A stretch of 64,000 bases of DNA from a virus (IMGVR_UViG_3300036766_001793:101485-165484); one strand, 5' to 3'. Numbered from the stretch's first letter, positions 41,830 through 56,835 are shown. Made by a program: numbers and translations. The notes: a model not told the origin generated them from the sequence alone.

Positions 41830-42744
41830 TCACTCATCGAAGTAGATCTCATCCTCGTCGGCCTGGCCGCCCTCGGCGCCCGTGTATAAGGCCTCCCGTC
41901 CCTCGTTGGGCGAAACCCACACAGTCCCACCGGCAGCCGTCGCAAGGAGGGCGGCGTCGGCCTGGGCGACCACGGCCGCCTCCCCGTCCTGCAGCCTGTA
42001 GCAGACCAGCTCCCTGTAGCACCTGCTGCAAGTCATGGACCGCCTCTTGAACGGCGGCGGTATGAGCCTCTGCTCTCTGGTGGCCGCCTGGGCGGCGGTG
42101 CTGTTCCTGAAAGCGTCTGCGATCATCCTGTCGTCGAACCTCACCCATATGATCTTGAACCCCTGGGTGTCGGTGTTCTCGAAGAGGAAGAAGCAGTCCG
42201 GCGAGACGCCGCCCTCTATGTGGCCCCTGAACGTGGCGTAATACTGGCAGAGCTGGTAGGTGTAGGCCATCCTGGCCCTGGCCATCGCGTAGGCCATCCT
42301 CACCGGGTCCGGGTCCTGGGGCGGGAGGGACGAGTAGCCGTTGGAGTTGATGGTCTTGATCTCGCCGAGGTGGCTGAGCCCTGTCTTGGGGTTGAGGCAC
42401 AGGAGGTCGTACTCGCCGCTCCACTCCCCGGGGATCTTCAGCCTCACCCCGGCGGAGACCAGCAGCCCCTTCGCAGCGAGCTCCTGGGACCACCTCTTGT
42501 GGGCATCCGTCCCGTTGTCCATCCTGCGACGGTTCAGTGGCTTCACCTCGGTCTTGTGCCCGAGCATCCCGAGCTGGATGTCCCGCGGGCATGCGCTGCC
42601 GGCGCTGGACGGGTGGACCTCTATGTTCGGGGCGGCCCACCGCTCGGACTCCGCCCCGATCTTCGAGGAGTCGATGGCAGTGCCTAGCCAGTCCCCGGTG
42701 CTCATCTGCTTGAGGAGCCTCGCGACCCCCTGCTTCTCAGGCAT
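41830..42744 (-). CDS. Cas4-like PD-(D/E)XK exonuclease
   Basis: HPSS...CPR, G...H, GEYD, EIKT, Q...Y, C-terminal CxxC.....C. Confidence 0.85.
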   Translation of the reverse strand: MPEKQGVARLLKQMSTGDWLGTAIDSSKIGAESERWAAPNIEVHPSSAGSACPRDIQLGMLGHKTEVKPLNRRRMDNGTDAHKRWSQELAAKGLLVSAGVRLKIPGEWSGEYDLLCLNPKTGLSHLGEIKTINSNGYSSLPPQDPDPVRMAYAMARARMAYTYQLCQYYATFRGHIEGGVSPDCFFLFENTDTQGFKIIWVRFDDRMIADAFRNSTAAQAATREQRLIPPPFKRRSMTCSRCYRELVCYRLQDGEAAVVAQADAALLATAAGGTVWVSPNEGREALYTGAEGGQADEDEIYFDE

Positions 42745-43648
42745 CCCTGGGGCCCTTGGTGTCCCTGGCCGCGAATCTTCGTGCCCACATACCAGCCGGT
42801 GCGGCCCACTGCATCGCCGTATTAGCCTGCTCAGCAGGCCGCTCGAGGAGCTTTCTGGCGGTCCGCAGGGCATTTCCGGCATCCTTGACGACAGTGTCCC
42901 ACCGCGCAATTGGATCTGTCGAGAGGGCCTCGGGTTCTGTCGGGATGAGCCCCGGGCGGACGAGTGGATCGAGCCAGGTGGTGGCGGCCTCCACCTTGTC
43001 CGCCATGTCGTAGTGGCGCTCGTAGATGTGGGCGCTGCCGGCGAGGTGTGTGTACCCGCCGACCTCGAGACCCAGCGCCCAGGCGATGCCCTGCTGGACA
43101 GCCACGAAGCAGGGGACGTCGTTCGCGAGGCCCCAGACGAGGTCCCACGATCTCATGTTGACCACCATCTCCAGCCGCCCGCCGCGGTTGAAGAATTGCC
43201 ACGTCGCAGTACAGGGCTGATCAGTGGTAGACGATGCGTGGATGCGCTCCAGGTCGGTGTCGCGTCCGACGTAGACCACCGCCCTGCGGCTGTCTGGGTC
43301 CTTCTGGAGTTCGGCCACCACCAGGCGGATCTGCCCGGCGGTCCTGGGGCCGTAGGCCCCGCCGGCGGTGAGGAGCTTCGACGCGAGCGGGGACACGGCC
43401 TCGAAGAGTGCCCCGTCGAACTCGCCCGCGAGTATCTGGCAGATCTCCATGTATGTCAGCGCGCGGTTTATCCCTGGACGCTTGGTGAAGCACCTCTCCG
43501 GCCGGCTGAGGGTCAGCAGGAGCGGCCGGACCTCGCGGACCTCCATCCCCCTGGGCCGGACGACGTCCCCCTGCCTCATCACGTCCGATAGGAGCTTCTT
43601 GTAGTCAGCGCCGAGGTCCTGGGTGTGCAGACAGAGCAGGTTAGACAA
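42737..43648 (-). CDS. Thymidylate-synthase-fold enzyme, dCMP (hydroxy)methylase-like
   Basis: AYGPR, DSRRA, DQPCT, MRSWDLVWGLAND, SAHIYE; TTG start inferred. Confidence 0.88.
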   Translation of the reverse strand: MSNLLCLHTQDLGADYKKLLSDVMRQGDVVRPRGMEVREVRPLLLTLSRPERCFTKRPGINRALTYMEICQILAGEFDGALFEAVSPLASKLLTAGGAYGPRTAGQIRLVVAELQKDPDSRRAVVYVGRDTDLERIHASSTTDQPCTATWQFFNRGGRLEMVVNMRSWDLVWGLANDVPCFVAVQQGIAWALGLEVGGYTHLAGSAHIYERHYDMADKVEAATTWLDPLVRPGLIPTEPEALSTDPIARWDTVVKDAGNALRTARKLLERPAEQANTAMQWAAPAGMWARRFAARDTKGPRDA

Positions 43649-44585
43649 GCCTGAACCCCCTCCTGGCGAGGGCCGGGAAGTCCTCCCAGTGCTCGTCCCC
43701 CACGAGGGACCTGCCGTAGCGGGAGACGTCCTTGTACCTGGTCCTCTGGACGAGGTCTGGACCGGGGAGGACGGAGTGCCTGAGACCGAGCCTGTTGAGA
43801 TCGTGATGGGCCTCATCGCTCAGCGAGACGAAGTGGGTGGTGGTCCATGTCTCTGGCGGTCGGAAATCGTGTGGCAGGCGCTCAACTATGCAGATCTTGT
43901 TGAGTGTGGGGCGATCGTCCACCGGCTTCCCGGCCCCGGCGGCGGAGAGGGCTCGGTACAGGAACTCCGTGGGATTGGCCCCCGCGAAGCAGATCCCGGG
44001 GCTGTACCGGTTCCCGAAGCACTCCACGCCGTCGAAAGGGTCCGGGATGCTGCCGAAGTGGTCCACCATCCCCTTCGCGTCGGCCACTATCCGCTCGAAC
44101 ATGCCCTCGGCGGTGAAGTCGTACCAGAGCATCGGGAGGCTCGCCATCTGCTGCATGTACATGTCGTACAGCGCCCTGACGGCGTCCCTGGCCTCCGGCA
44201 CCTCGAAGGTCCTGGCGTCCTCGTCCCTCGGCGGCCGGCTGTCGAGGACGGCATCTGTCGAGGCCTTGTCCTCGGTCCTCGCGTAGAGGAGGATGCTGTT
44301 GTGGGCCATCAGGGTCCCGTCGATCGTCCAGTGGTCGAACGGACTGAGGTCGTCCATGCCGCGGAAGATGACCCCGTAGACGAAGCTGCTCGGATGCGCC
44401 CTGTCCAGGACGATAGGCCGCCCCTCCCTCGCCTTCTTCCTGATGGCGTCGAGGTAGTAGTCGACCGGCTCGTACTCCGGGGGGCCGAACTTCTGGTACC
44501 CGTAGCCCTCTGCCACGAAGGCCTCGGCGAGGGTGGTCTTCCCGCTCCCGTCGGGACCTTCGATAATAATAAATGGATGTCGCAT
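43641..44585 (-). CDS. dNMP (thymidylate-kinase-like) kinase with a C-terminal extension
   Basis: IIEGPDGSGKTT, DR.H.S..VY. Confidence 0.88.
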   Translation of the reverse strand: MRHPFIIIEGPDGSGKTTLAEAFVAEGYGYQKFGPPEYEPVDYYLDAIRKKAREGRPIVLDRAHPSSFVYGVIFRGMDDLSPFDHWTIDGTLMAHNSILLYARTEDKASTDAVLDSRPPRDEDARTFEVPEARDAVRALYDMYMQQMASLPMLWYDFTAEGMFERIVADAKGMVDHFGSIPDPFDGVECFGNRYSPGICFAGANPTEFLYRALSAAGAGKPVDDRPTLNKICIVERLPHDFRPPETWTTTHFVSLSDEAHHDLNRLGLRHSVLPGPDLVQRTRYKDVSRYGRSLVGDEHWEDFPALARRGFRLV

Positions 44586-44589
44586 CGAA

Positions 44590-45012
44590 TTATCCTACCG
44601 GCACGGGAGGGGCGTGCCTGTCGTCCTTGTCCTCTAGCCAGTACCACTCCGTGATCCCGGCCCCCTTCATGAACATCTGGCAGTCGTGACACGGCTCGAG
44701 GGTGACGTACATGACAGCGCCCCTGGTGGGGTGCCCGTGCTGGGCCGCCTGGAGGATGGCGTTGTGCTCGGCGTGTATCGCCCTCTTGCACTTGCCGTCC
44801 ACGAGGTGGCACCCGAGCGCCCCGCCCTGGGGTGATGGGTCGTCGCAGTGCCTCTCCCCAGACGGGGACCCGTTGTACCCGGTCGCTATGACGTGGCCGT
44901 CCATCACGAGGGCGGCCCCGACCTGGCGCTTGAGGCAGGTCGACGCCCCGGCCCACACCGCGGCCGTGGCGAAGTATCGCTCCCTGTGCTTGTCGTGGTG
45001 GCTAGCGCTCAT
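44590..45012 (-). CDS. dCMP deaminase
   Basis: STC...VGA, TGYNG, HAEHNA, PCHDC. Confidence 0.93.
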   Translation of the reverse strand: MSASHHDKHRERYFATAAVWAGASTCLKRQVGAALVMDGHVIATGYNGSPSGERHCDDPSPQGGALGCHLVDGKCKRAIHAEHNAILQAAQHGHPTRGAVMYVTLEPCHDCQMFMKGAGITEWYWLEDKDDRHAPPVPVG

Positions 45013-45373
45013 GGTCCCACCTTTCGTGGTTCACGTCGTTCTTGGCGAAGAACCGGCTCTCTATCTCCTGGGCTGTGCTTATCCCTGCTCCGAGGAACAT
45101 GTTGATGACGAAGTGGAGGCAGTCGACCGTCTCCTCGATGAACCTCTCCCTCTCCTCGGGCGTGATTGGCCGGCCGAAGTCCGTCCTGTGCATCTTCCAT
45201 GGGAGTGCGTCCAGGGCCTCGCCCGCCTCGCGGGCCAGGCAGTTGGAGTTCTCCTTGAGGTAGAACGTCGTTCCGTCTGATCCCCCGGCCTCCCCGAAGG
45301 CCCGAATCTTCGGGCCTACGCGGTCTTGGAGGCCGCGCTGCTTGGCTATAATCCTGTCCAGACTGTCTGTCAT
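45002..45373 (-). CDS. All-alpha dNTP pyrophosphatase (dimeric dUTPase / T4 gp56-like)
   Basis: E..E..D.LPWK.H...EETVD.LHF...KN..N..R. Confidence 0.85.
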   Translation of the reverse strand: MTDSLDRIIAKQRGLQDRVGPKIRAFGEAGGSDGTTFYLKENSNCLAREAGEALDALPWKMHRTDFGRPITPEERERFIEETVDCLHFVINMFLGAGISTAQEIESRFFAKNDVNHERWDHER

Positions 45374-45753
45374 CGCTTCCCCCTGGCCCTGGCGCGCCTC
45401 TCCGCTAGCCCCTCCTGGGCGCCCAGCCACCCGTCTACCGCCTCGAACATGCCGGCCCGCTTCCCCTTTAGGAGGTCCGCGTCCGTGAACCTCATGATGG
45501 GTATGCCGAGCTCCCCGAGGATCCAGGCGTCCCGCTCTGCGTCCCGCCGCCTCTGGGCCGTGGACGCGTGGAAGTCCCTCCCGTCGTACTCGAAGCCGGC
45601 GTGGACCTCCTCCGCGTAGCAGTCGATGCTGTACCTGCCTGCCGGGTGCTCGTCCTCCACGACGAACCCCATGGCCTCCACGAGGAACCTGTGCAGAGCC
45701 CTGTGCCCGCTGGTGCCGGTCGTGCCCCTCTCCTGGCCGTCAAGCTGCGGCAT
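45370..45753 (-). CDS. DUF559/Vsr-like endonuclease
   Basis: YSIDCY...FEYDG..FH...RRD..RD. Confidence 0.8.
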   Translation of the reverse strand: MPQLDGQERGTTGTSGHRALHRFLVEAMGFVVEDEHPAGRYSIDCYAEEVHAGFEYDGRDFHASTAQRRRDAERDAWILGELGIPIMRFTDADLLKGKRAGMFEAVDGWLGAQEGLAERRARARGKR

Positions 45754-46171
45754 CGGCCAGCCCCTGGCGGATGGCCATCAGCGCGAGCCCGAGCTTGTTC
45801 AGCCCTGAGCCGCCGCTGACCCCCCAGTACCGGTCCCCCCAGGCGTTCCCCTCTATGATGACGGCGTCACCCGTCGCCAGGAGCAGGCCCGTGAGGGGCT
45901 CCCGCGAGAACTTCTGCTCCAGGAGGTCCCGCATGATGCCGTCCTTCAGCTGGTCCCAGCCCGGCCTCAGCCTCACCAGGCGCCCCCGCGACTTCGCGAT
46001 GCCTGGGGTGCGGGCGAGCCTGATCATGTCTCTGTCGGCCTCGTCCAGGGTCTTGGCCGCCTGGTAGGCGTGCTCGACGCTCGGGTACGGGAGGCCTCCC
46101 ATCTCCACCGTCACCGGGTGGAAGTTCGAGAGGAACCCGTGCTCGTAGGTGAACTCGTAGATGACCTCCAC
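45740..46171 (-). CDS. NADAR (YbiA-like) family hydrolase
   Basis: FLSNF...SVEHAYQAAK...KF...LLATG...EGNAWGDRYWG...G.N.LG..LM. Confidence 0.93.
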   Translation of the reverse strand: MEVIYEFTYEHGFLSNFHPVTVEMGGLPYPSVEHAYQAAKTLDEADRDMIRLARTPGIAKSRGRLVRLRPGWDQLKDGIMRDLLEQKFSREPLTGLLLATGDAVIIEGNAWGDRYWGVSGGSGLNKLGLALMAIRQGLADAAA

Positions 46172-46322
46172 GCCTTGCTCCTCTCGTGCCTGTAGCACAG
46201 CCTGCAGGTCCGCCTCACCCAGTCCCGGTGGCGGCTGACAGGGTTCCCGGTGGAGTTGACGTACTCCCACGCGTGGAGCACGGGAAGGAGGCGGAGGACG
46301 GAGCGCACCGCCTCTGCCGGGC

Positions 46323-55402: not shown

Positions 55403-55621
55403 TCACCCCAGCCCCTTCTGCCCCTCTTCGAGCTTCTCCAGCGCCACCGTCAGCTCGCCCAGCGCCCCGGCACAGTCCCCCTCGAGGAGCATCCCCTGGG
55501 CGGCCGCCGCCTGGGCGGCCAGCTCCCTGTAGAGGCCCAGCTCAAGGCCCGCGTTCCACGCCTCCAGGAGGGCGGCCTTCGCCTGGTCCGGCGGGCCGGG
55601 GGGCGCTCCGGCCGCCGTCAA
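55403..55621 (-). CDS. Small helical protein between the two polymerase parts
   Basis: TTG start overlaps the upstream TGA; Ala/Leu/Glu-rich. Confidence 0.6.
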   Translation of the reverse strand: MTAAGAPPGPPDQAKAALLEAWNAGLELGLYRELAAQAAAAQGMLLEGDCAGALGELTVALEKLEEGQKGLG

Positions 55622-56835
55622 GCGGGGCCCGCCTCGCCGGCGGCCGCGCGTCCCGCCTGGGCCTCGGCGAGCAGCTCCTCGAGCAGCTCCCTCCCTACCT
55701 TCCTGGCCAGCGCCACTCCGGCCCCGCGCTCCGGCTTGACCTGCCCGAGGGGCTTCGACCACAGGATCCCCGACCGGAGCTCCCTGGCCCACCTGGCTAT
55801 CGTGCCGTCGTCCGCCGAGCGGAGCCGCTCCCTCGCGTTCCTGATGTTCCTCATGTCGAACTTGACGTTGTGCCCGCTGGACCTCCCGGCCTCCACGAGG
55901 TCGGCGACGCCGAGCACGACCTCCCTGAGCTCCTCCGGCCTGTCGACGAACGGGCTGTCCGGGTGCTCGGCCGGCACGAGCCACACGACGATGGCGCCGT
56001 CCGCGTCCCGCCTGCCGGTGGACAGCGCGGCGCACCAGAGCTTCGCAAAGTCGGGCCTGAAGTCGATGAACCCTCGGGTCTCTAGGTCGAAGGTGAGGAT
56101 CCCATCGTGCGCCGCGACCTCGGCGGCCATCTCCCTGAAGGCCCCTATGTCCCGCACCTCGACGATGCTCACCCTCGGCTGGCCGTGGACCCCGAGCAGG
56201 AGCTGCCTGAACTTGGACACGTCCTGCGCGAACGCCTGGTAGTAGGCAGGGTACCTGAGGACGTAGCCCGGGTGGACGGTCGGGACGACCCAAAGGCCGC
56301 GCTCCCCGTCCCACATCGAGCGGCCCCTGTGCCTCATGAGGCCGGCGGTCCTGGTGAAGAACCAGTAGGCGGACGCCCCCATGGCGAGGACGACCTGCGG
56401 CCTGACGGCCCTGATCTCCTCCTCGAGGTAGTCGGCGCACTCCGCCTGGGCCCGCTTGACCCAGAGCTCGTTCCTCGTCTCGCCGGAGCCCGCCGGGCAC
56501 TTGACCGCGTTCGTCACGTAGATGTCCTCGCGGTCCAGGTCGAACTCCCTCAGGACGAGGTCCAGGAGCTTGCCCTGCGTGCCGGTCGAGGTGATCGGCC
56601 GCAGCTTCCCTAGGTCCCTCGCGCTGGGGGCATCCCCGATGACCATCCCCCTGGCGGGGGCGGGCCCGTTCCCCCACTGGCACCTCTCGCCGGCCCCGGC
56701 GTTGTGCTGCAGCGGGCACCGCGCGCAGTCCGGCTCCCGGTGCCTCCGCGCCATGGCGGCGGCCTGCCTGGAGACGGGAGGGTCCTCCTCGCGGCTCGTC
56801 AGCCTCGTCCTCTGGTACGGGCGCGCCTCGGTCAT
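55618..56835 (-). CDS. Uracil-DNA glycosylase (family 4-like) fused to the N-terminal half of the 3'-5' exonuclease
   Basis: CARCPL, IGDAP, TNAVKC, HP; then FDLET (Exo I) and GHNVKFD (Exo II). Confidence 0.9.
   Translation of the reverse strand: MTEARPYQRTRLTSREEDPPVSRQAAAMARRHREPDCARCPLQHNAGAGERCQWGNGPAPARGMVIGDAPSARDLGKLRPITSTGTQGKLLDLVLREFDLDREDIYVTNAVKCPAGSGETRNELWVKRAQAECADYLEEEIRAVRPQVVLAMGASAYWFFTRTAGLMRHRGRSMWDGERGLWVVPTVHPGYVLRYPAYYQAFAQDVSKFRQLLLGVHGQPRVSIVEVRDIGAFREMAAEVAAHDGILTFDLETRGFIDFRPDFAKLWCAALSTGRRDADGAIVVWLVPAEHPDSPFVDRPEELREVVLGVADLVEAGRSSGHNVKFDMRNIRNARERLRSADDGTIARWARELRSGILWSKPLGQVKPERGAGVALARKVGRELLEELLAEAQAGRAAAGEAGPA

Follow-up and report, generated by a model that had tools for sequence, protein, structure and literature searches.

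A putative dCMP-hydroxymethylation cassette in an uncultured high-GC phage that also carries genes linked to thymine modification

Replacement of cytosine by 5-hydroxymethylcytosine (hmC) is a known means by which phages escape restriction enzymes. The classical example is phage T4, in which the deoxycytidine monophosphate (dCMP) hydroxymethylase gp42 is accompanied by a deoxynucleoside monophosphate (dNMP) kinase (gp1), a dCTPase/dUTPase (gp56) and a dCMP deaminase (cd). The same four activities, judged by protein family, are encoded in a gene cassette within a 64,000-nucleotide stretch of viral DNA (IMGVR_UViG_3300036766_001793:101485-165484; hereafter the window), which forms the terminal 64 kb of a 165,484-bp IMG/VR virus record (66% GC, 87% complete according to CheckV) from an uncultured phage. 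The central product of the cassette is an enzyme with the thymidylate synthase (TS) fold. An earlier note on this DNA had described the locus as T4-like, and the present analysis on balance favours, with modest confidence, a cassette that would act before replication and put 5-hydroxymethyl-dCTP in the place of dCTP, in the manner of T4 gp56, gp42, gp1 and cd.

Modules of this kind have already been described in metaviromes by MetaGPA. According to published rules that have experimental backing (PMC13326640; bioRxiv 10.1101/2024.12.05.627091; PMC8670742), four positions are diagnostic in TS-fold enzymes, namely N177, L143, D169 and H147 of Escherichia coli ThyA. An exchange N177D makes dCMP instead of deoxyuridine monophosphate (dUMP) the substrate, D169N marks the flavin-dependent 5-hydroxy-dCMP synthases, and H147 is a position that differs between modified and unmodified contigs. 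For the Asn/Asp switch, mutagenesis tests in TS as well as in gp42 are cited in PMC13326640 and PMC8670742. An acidic residue at the position of L143 correlates with a hydroxymethyl rather than a methyl product, which is a correlation and not a proven determinant (PMC13326640). In addition, it has been hypothesized that the accompanying deaminase acts on the modified nucleotide (PMC8670742; bioRxiv 10.1101/2024.12.05.627091), and also that dTMP arises by deamination of 5-methyl-dCMP (bioRxiv 10.1101/2024.12.05.627091).

Active site and relatives of the TS-fold enzyme

Five minus-strand genes that overlap or abut at window positions 42737-45753 encode a nuclease, a nucleoside triphosphate pyrophosphatase (NTPase), a deaminase, a kinase and the TS-fold enzyme; all five are present where the earlier note had placed them (Table 1), in a window in which almost all genes lie on the minus strand. 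The TS-fold enzyme matches PF00303 with E 1.4e-15. Its gene most likely starts at the TTG at 43648, ten bases after an AGGAGG, which yields a protein of 303 amino acids, a length as in the homologues; the long open reading frame (ORF) overlaps the kinase gene, and from the TTG start the overlap with the kinase stop is 8 nt. The numbering of the 303-residue protein coincides, by chance, with that of E. coli ThyA through the active site, and the protein ends in an extension of about 85 residues. Its best sequence matches in the PDB are the CMP hydroxymethylase MilA (5e-15) and the T4 dCMP hydroxymethylase (6e-9), and the identity with gp42 amounts to 31% over a 119-residue core.

The catalytic C146 is kept, as are the phosphate-binding residues R21, R126, R127 and R166 and, in addition, S167, H207 and Y209. 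The enzyme contains the motif RSWDLVWGLAND, the Asp of which aligns with E. coli N177 and T4 D179 both in MAFFT alignments with the reference genes of T4, SPO1, SP10, ViI, M6, PaMx11, PaMx74 and ThyA and in a direct pairwise BLASTP comparison with gp42, in agreement with the assignment made earlier. The same pairwise comparison places D143 on gp42 D145, and D177 is invariant among 18 close homologues. At positions 143, 147, 165, 169 and 177 the enzyme has D/T/M/D/D and is identical to T4 gp42 at all five, whereas the dUMP hydroxymethylases (SPO1 gp29, SP10, ViI, M6 gp58 and PaMx11 gp51) have D/N/N/D/N, the 5-methylcytosine (5mC) synthase of PaMx74 has N/P/L/D/D and E. coli ThyA has L/H/Q/D/N. 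The residues leading up to the catalytic Cys are TDQPC here, SDFMC in gp42 and ALAPC in ThyA. A 5-hydroxy-dCMP synthase of the RB69 gp48 / DLP3 gp80 type was considered as well and rejected, as the sequence RSWD retains D169 where PDB 9iqu has RSQN.

The cassette gene is the sole PF00303 match in the 165-kb record, in which six-frame searches revealed no second TS, no ThyX and no dihydrofolate reductase (DHFR; PF00186). A hydroxymethylase regenerates tetrahydrofolate and hence does not need DHFR. The methylase phage PaMx74, in contrast, has the DHFR gene frd beside its TS and deaminase genes. Taking the active-site residues together, the enzyme very probably acts on a cytosine nucleotide. Provided that it does, a hydroxymethyl product would be likely rather than a methyl product, because of the acidic residue at the L143 position and because no DHFR was found. 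The same two observations disfavour the formation of dTMP via deamination of 5-methyl-dCMP, which had been put forward earlier as an alternative.

The family set comprised 76 homologues, nearly all unnamed, and 77 viral loci, and gene neighbourhoods were read from the IMG/VR loci. The signature [D/E]TMDD occurs in 68 of the 77 loci, and in a few members of the family residue 143 is Asn, as it is in PaMx74. In a maximum-likelihood tree the family forms a clade of its own (support 100/99), beside GodonK gp192 and next to the clade of the dUMP hydroxymethylases; gp42 is found elsewhere, on a long branch, and the deep nodes are weak. A phylogenetic comparison with gp42 had been proposed in the earlier note, and it did not recover common descent; the clade that contains the enzyme is distinct and unannotated. 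This position outside the gp42 clade lowers the claim of orthology, and it does not lower the claim of a gp42-like function. A megablast search with 10 kb against a phage collection yielded no near-identical phage DNA.

Partner enzymes and conserved gene order

In the proposed hydroxymethylation pathway the all-alpha pyrophosphatase would convert dCTP (and dUTP) to the monophosphate, after which the TS-fold enzyme would hydroxymethylate dCMP at C5, with methylene-tetrahydrofolate and by means of its Cys146. The adjacent kinase would phosphorylate the modified monophosphate, supposedly a poor substrate for host kinases, a host nucleoside diphosphate kinase would complete the triphosphate, and the phage polymerase would then make hmC DNA. 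The deaminase might deliver dUMP for host thymidylate synthesis and/or trim the modified pool. All of these substrates, as well as the occurrence of hmC in the DNA of the virion, are inferred from the genes.

Of the partner enzymes, the NTPase matches PF08761 (dUTPase_2) with E 1.4e-9 and PHROG 173 (NTP pyrophosphohydrolase), and T4 gp56 dCTPase is matched by the same PF08761 model with E 2e-5. Its probable ATG lies at 45373 and overlaps the stop of the nuclease gene as ATGA. The deaminase matches PF00383 (dCMP_cyt_deam_1; E 3.6e-21), PHROG 174 (E 1.6e-38) and, below the cut-off of that model, NCBIfam ComEB (E 2e-29), and it contains the zinc motifs HAE and PCxxC. The nuclease reaches 22.3 bits for DUF559 against a cut-off of 20.6 (E 1.3e-4) and matches MTES_1575 below its cut-off (E 1e-5); no PDB sequence match was obtained for it.

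The kinase consists of two parts. Residues 1-180 form a nucleoside monophosphate (NMP) kinase domain with the P-loop GPDGSGKT and a conserved DR motif that, in our own reading, appears to resemble that of the thymidylate kinases. Sequence matches to thymidylate kinase are sub-threshold, and PHROG 761 is matched at 4e-11. A profile search of the PDB gave YorR (2axp) at 6e-8 and thymidylate kinases at 1e-4, and the fold comparison gave the same order, with SPbeta YorR as the best match (Z 15.0, root-mean-square deviation (rmsd) 2.8, 160 residues aligned) followed by thymidylate kinases. A possible identity of the cassette kinase as 5-HMUDK was rejected, as it has no PF18748 match and its similarity to M6 gp54 and PaMx11 gp49 is at the level of the P-loop (E 0.1 to 0.7).

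The fold search with the whole kinase matched the N-terminal domain only and the C-terminal domain was therefore folded alone. Residues 175-314 (window 43641-44063) constitute a small alpha/beta domain of 140 residues that has no Pfam match and was modelled with a pLDDT of 80. All five PDB chains at Z of at least 5 are of the uracil-DNA glycosylase (UDG) type (Z 6.7, 6.5, 6.5, 5.8 and 5.2), one of them being the UDG domain of phiLo PolA; the top match has an rmsd of 3.1 over 112 aligned residues. Likewise, the top four Foldseek matches are UDGs (E 0.01-0.04), and the UDG signals at the sequence level are sub-threshold (E 0.024 to 0.2). When the domain was inspected for UDG motif A (G..P....VG..P) and motif B (HP...), the motif-B His turned out to be a Gly in the present phage and to be kept as a VPHPQH-type motif in distant relatives. 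Relatives with as little as about 30% identity still have the kinase fused to the C-terminal domain, and in some of them a large insertion separates motif A from the remainder. The model folds like a reduced domain of the UDG superfamily, and the domain is probably UDG-like.

The arrangement of the cassette is more than chance; the same gene order is seen in related IMG/VR contigs. More specifically, the order RecA, DUF559 nuclease, NTPase, deaminase, kinase, TS and Cas4-like is found again in the contigs L034 and L035, while in L044, L057 and L059 the genes for nuclease, NTPase, kinase and TS follow the same order and no deaminase gene was found within 10 kb. In all five contigs the DUF559 nuclease gene adjoins the NTPase gene. 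Over the wider family, 35 of 67 related loci have a kinase homologue as the immediate upstream neighbour of TS, and 34 of 71 have a deaminase gene in the vicinity. In L034 (IMGVR_UViG_3300036766_001364), which is the closest of the near-complete relatives, genes spanning about 3.1 kb (L034:5887-9033) are located between the deaminase and the kinase; this interval has no counterpart in the present phage and could hold extra modification genes.

Upstream of the cassette are a NADAR gene and a RecA/UvsX gene, and downstream lies a Cas4-like nuclease gene. The Cas4-like gene also follows the TS gene in L034, L035, L036, L044, L057 and L059, and this conserved neighbour is part of the recombination genes. 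The NADAR gene, located between RecA and the cassette, changes position among relatives, and its product, which has a weak match to the NCBIfam NADAR anti-phage model, is probably a neighbour and not a member of the pathway.

Table 1. Cassette genes, immediate neighbours and other genes considered. Positions refer to the window unless stated otherwise.
Feature	Position	Strand	Family or match
DUF559/Vsr-like (PD-(D/E)XK) nuclease, 127 aa (weak call)	45370..45753	-	DUF559, MTES_1575
All-alpha NTP pyrophosphatase, candidate dCTPase/dUTPase or dTTPase	45002..45373 (ORF 45002-45430)	-	PF08761
dCMP-family deaminase, 140 aa	44590..45012	-	PF00383
Nucleotide kinase, 314 aa	43641..44585	-	NMP-kinase fold
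TS-fold enzyme, predicted dCMP 5-hydroxymethylase, 303 aa	42737..43648 (ORF 42737-43816)	-	PF00303
NADAR-domain protein, immediately upstream neighbour	45740..46270	-	PF08719 E 5.8e-22
Cas4-like PD-(D/E)XK exonuclease, immediately downstream neighbour	41830..42744	-	PHROG 1706 and 1990
Clade-1 aGPT-Pplase, 290 aa	genome 100379-101251 (L012:10379-11251)	-	PF18723 (HMUDK_hel) E 4e-54, model positions 3-277 of 281
N-terminal piece of split family-A DNA polymerase with UDG domain	55618..56835	-	Pfam UDG E 1e-19, DNA_pol_A E 2e-58 (pooled window proteins)
MBD4-type HhH-GPD mismatch glycosylase, 146 aa	28595..29035	-	PF00730; phmmer

Thymine-linked genes and alternative readings

The genome also encodes two proteins of types that have been connected to modified thymine. 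The gene of the PF18723 protein, homologues of which are named aGPT-Pplase clade 1 by GenBank annotators, lies 233 bp before the start of the window and 42 kb from the cassette, alone beside a tRNA array. No conserved modification genes were found among its neighbours, either here or in the three relatives that have it (G002, G022 and G026). Searches of the 87%-complete record at E up to 10 gave no match to PF18748, the family of the proven 5-hmdU DNA kinase (the P-loop kinase 5-HMUDK; in six frames), or to the amino acid:DNA transferase PF18724 (aGPT-Pplase clade 2), and tblastn with M6 gp51 and PaMx11 gp46 found no match in it. A literature search for aGPT-Pplase1 together with hmC returned nothing useful. 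The second protein is a piece of a split PolA with a UDG domain, the UDG motifs of which are visible in the hhalign output. UDG-PolA is known from phages with modified thymine, some of which, the RP13-like phages, have aGPT-Pplase1 and no detectable 5-HMUDK (PMC13697223).

Several points weigh against the hmC reading. The phage is uncultured, and the sequence of the NTPase is compatible with dCTP as well as with dTTP/dUTP as the preferred substrate. The five-residue signature that the TS-fold enzyme has in common with gp42 is, to go by the tree, not inherited from gp42. Among the phages tested for PF18723, the five thymidine hypermodifiers all have the family and T4, SPO1, PaMx74, GodonK and RsoM2USA lack it, and the UDG-fused PolA points in the same direction. 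Finally, the earlier note had suggested a search for glycosyltransferases elsewhere in the genome; it was run, and Pfam families at E up to 1e-3 revealed no glycosyltransferase and no carbamoyltransferase among 125 pooled ORFs, a set that comprised ORFs of at least 90 codons outside the window and, throughout, ORFs passing a GC3 (third-position GC) filter. Many phage DNA glycosyltransferases escape Pfam, and the lack of glycosyltransferases is therefore weak evidence.

The foremost alternative is a pathway with the same 5-hydroxymethyl-dCMP chemistry and a modified thymine as end product, which we nevertheless consider unlikely. The deaminase would then yield 5-hydroxymethyl-dUMP, the kinase would phosphorylate it, the NTPase would remove dTTP/dUTP and the UDG-PolA would build DNA with 5-hydroxymethyluracil (5hmU), perhaps in addition to hmC, for processing by the clade-1 aGPT-Pplase. 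The branch from 5-hydroxymethyl-dCMP to 5-hydroxymethyl-dUMP is chemically plausible, and human DCTD performs this very conversion. The co-occurrence itself is not restricted to the present phage, as G002, G022 and G026 likewise pair PF18723 with a single TS-fold gene of the Asp177 type, and, in published work on such modules, deaminases adjoining an Asp177-type TS often favour 5mC or 5hmC nucleotides, with 5hmdU reported in vivo. Human DCTD is also the subject of a paper on oxidised methylcytidines, in which 5hmdCMP and 5hmdUMP occur (PMC10305735). On the other hand, neither the PF18748 kinase nor the PF18724 transferase was detected in the record, and M6 gp55, which is the clade-1 protein, was not needed in vitro (PMC8989533). 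PF18723 occurs in only 3 of 50 relatives and is lacking in the closest one, the 98%-complete G001. Moreover, G026, a record of 79% completeness, has PF18723 and shows no deaminase gene, and L044, L057 and L059 hold the cassette without a nearby deaminase gene. A related and tentative possibility concerns the lineage as a whole: its sole C5-modifying enzyme would be a cytosine-type hydroxymethylase, yet it might obtain modified thymine from deaminated 5-hydroxymethyl-dCMP, bypassing a dUMP hydroxymethylase, with the lone clade-1 aGPT-Pplase acting on the product; or else the clade-1 protein and the kinase-UDG-like fusion might act on hmC in DNA, in an undescribed cytosine hypermodification.

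The remaining alternatives differ in the reaction of the TS-fold enzyme itself. It is quite improbable that this reaction is the methylation of dCMP, as in Xp12 and PaMx74, which would lead to 5mC DNA and leave the deaminase to make dTMP from 5-methyl-dCMP. Asp177 is common to the PaMx74 enzyme, a deaminase adjoins it in both phages, the Asn143 of PaMx74 recurs in a few family members and, in one study, five of seven tested TS homologues linked to a deaminase made 5-methyl-dCMP (5mdCMP; bioRxiv 10.1101/2024.12.05.627091). The present enzyme, however, has D143, in contrast to the Asn of PaMx74 and the Leu of ThyA (the L143 rule being a correlation only) and T147/M165 instead of P147/L165, and the DHFR gene that lies beside the PaMx74 pair has no counterpart in its genome. 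Least probable is an action on dUMP in spite of Asp177, either as an ordinary thymidylate synthase or as a dUMP hydroxymethylase, with the cassette boosting the supply of thymidylate or 5hmdU. The similarity to SPO1 gp29 (2e-19) does exceed that to T4 gp42, the dUMP hydroxymethylases form the adjacent clade in the tree and the genome has the thymine-modification markers. Nevertheless, all five checked dUMP hydroxymethylases have N147/N165/N177, whereas T147/M165/D177 is invariant in the present family, and the position concerned is the mutagenesis-tested switch cited above. The core proposal of the earlier note, a cytosine-directed TS-fold enzyme in a T4-like cassette that would imply modified cytosine in the DNA, can be maintained in view of the gp42 residues and the Pfam family of gp56, and of its two chemistries 5hmC is favoured over 5mC.

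The best cultured-phage match of the PF18723 protein is found in Brevibacterium phage LuckyBarnes (NC_047851 31993-36008; L114:3994-8009), where an unannotated clade-1 aGPT-Pplase homologue is encoded beside a 517-residue dUMP-type TS fusion and two glycosyltransferases that are annotated as hmC glucosyltransferases. The LuckyBarnes TS shares N147 and the Asn at the specificity position with the dUMP hydroxymethylases, but its residue 165 is Ile. By its gene content, this actinophage cluster resembles a system for glycosylated thymine that has so far not been characterised.

The MBD4 gene noted earlier is indeed present and full-length: phmmer against human and mouse MBD4 glycosylase domains gave E 1e-20 over residues 6-135, with 15 MBD4 sequences matched and the next family at 6e-5. 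Phages do not usually encode a full-length homologue of this mammalian domain. The bases that MBD4 excises are T, U and 5hmU paired with G. The phage protein fits the repair of 5mC or 5hmC deaminated opposite G and does not discriminate between the hmC and modified-thymine readings. Elsewhere among the pooled ORFs, an MT-A70 adenine methyltransferase (PF05063, E 6e-19; one of 24 ORFs at window 36131-63802) makes adenine methylation of the phage DNA possible. Window 324-35917 contains a ribonucleotide reductase with intein/LAGLIDADG insertions and an RNA-repair set of PNKP phosphatase and kinase, T4-type RNA ligase, RlaP and an Rv2179c-like exoribonuclease.

Significance and comparison with known systems

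If the hmC reading is true, the present phage and at least 68 related viral contigs would make 5-hydroxymethylcytosine DNA by an enzyme lineage separate from that of T4, and the known spread of this anti-restriction strategy would be widened into large high-GC phages. Beyond the earlier note, the analysis places the enzyme in a separate clade without gp42, recognizes the extra domain of the kinase and adds the thymine markers aGPT-Pplase clade 1 and UDG-PolA. Two features are notable, namely the fusion of the kinase to a probably UDG-like domain and the presence of aGPT-Pplase1 and UDG-PolA genes alongside a cytosine-type synthase. The latter is a mismatch, as the only base-modifying synthase is of the cytosine type and yet the genome has genes hitherto linked to thymine modification. 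Its resolution could lead to a new route to 5hmU or to the first function of a clade-1 aGPT-Pplase, on hmC. In addition, the family is of interest for practical use, because it could provide modified nucleotides and modification-selective deaminases.

Compared with T4, the genes are arranged differently: gp42 and gp56 are about 9 kb apart in the T4 stretch examined, whereas the present phage has a single operon. The kinase differs from that of T4 in having the thymidylate-kinase/YorR fold with an extra C-terminal domain, and the 66% GC genome yielded no td, no frd and no glucosyltransferase at the level of Pfam. The thymine-hypermodification systems of M6, ViI, PhiW-14, SP10 and PaMx11, which comprise a dUMP hydroxymethylase, 5-HMUDK and aGPT-Pplase/ADDT, resemble the present phage in that a full-length PF18723 homologue occurs along with deaminase, NTPase, kinase and TS-homologue genes. 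The present TS, however, is of the cytosine type, the PF18723 gene stands alone and neither PF18748 nor PF18724 was found.

The MetaGPA modules (Yang et al. eLife 2021, PMC8670742; bioRxiv 10.1101/2024.12.05.627091) are close in context: they have an Asp177 TS homologue, a dCMP-family deaminase in cis and a PRA-PH/MazG-type pyrophosphatase, near PolA, which is the same neighbourhood with the same residue-based prediction. Most of the enzymes tested there gave 5mdCMP, whereas the present one bears the hydroxymethylase signature, and those descriptions, as far as they are available, mention neither a kinase fusion nor an aGPT-Pplase1 gene. Among solved structures, the best sequence match of the enzyme itself is the CMP 5-hydroxymethylase MilA of Streptomyces rimofaciens (PDB 5b6d, 5jnh), which likewise has Asp at 143 and 177 and a C-terminal extension. 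MilA takes a ribonucleotide substrate for the synthesis of an antibiotic, whereas the dNMP kinase and NTPase genes around the present enzyme suggest that it works on deoxynucleotides.

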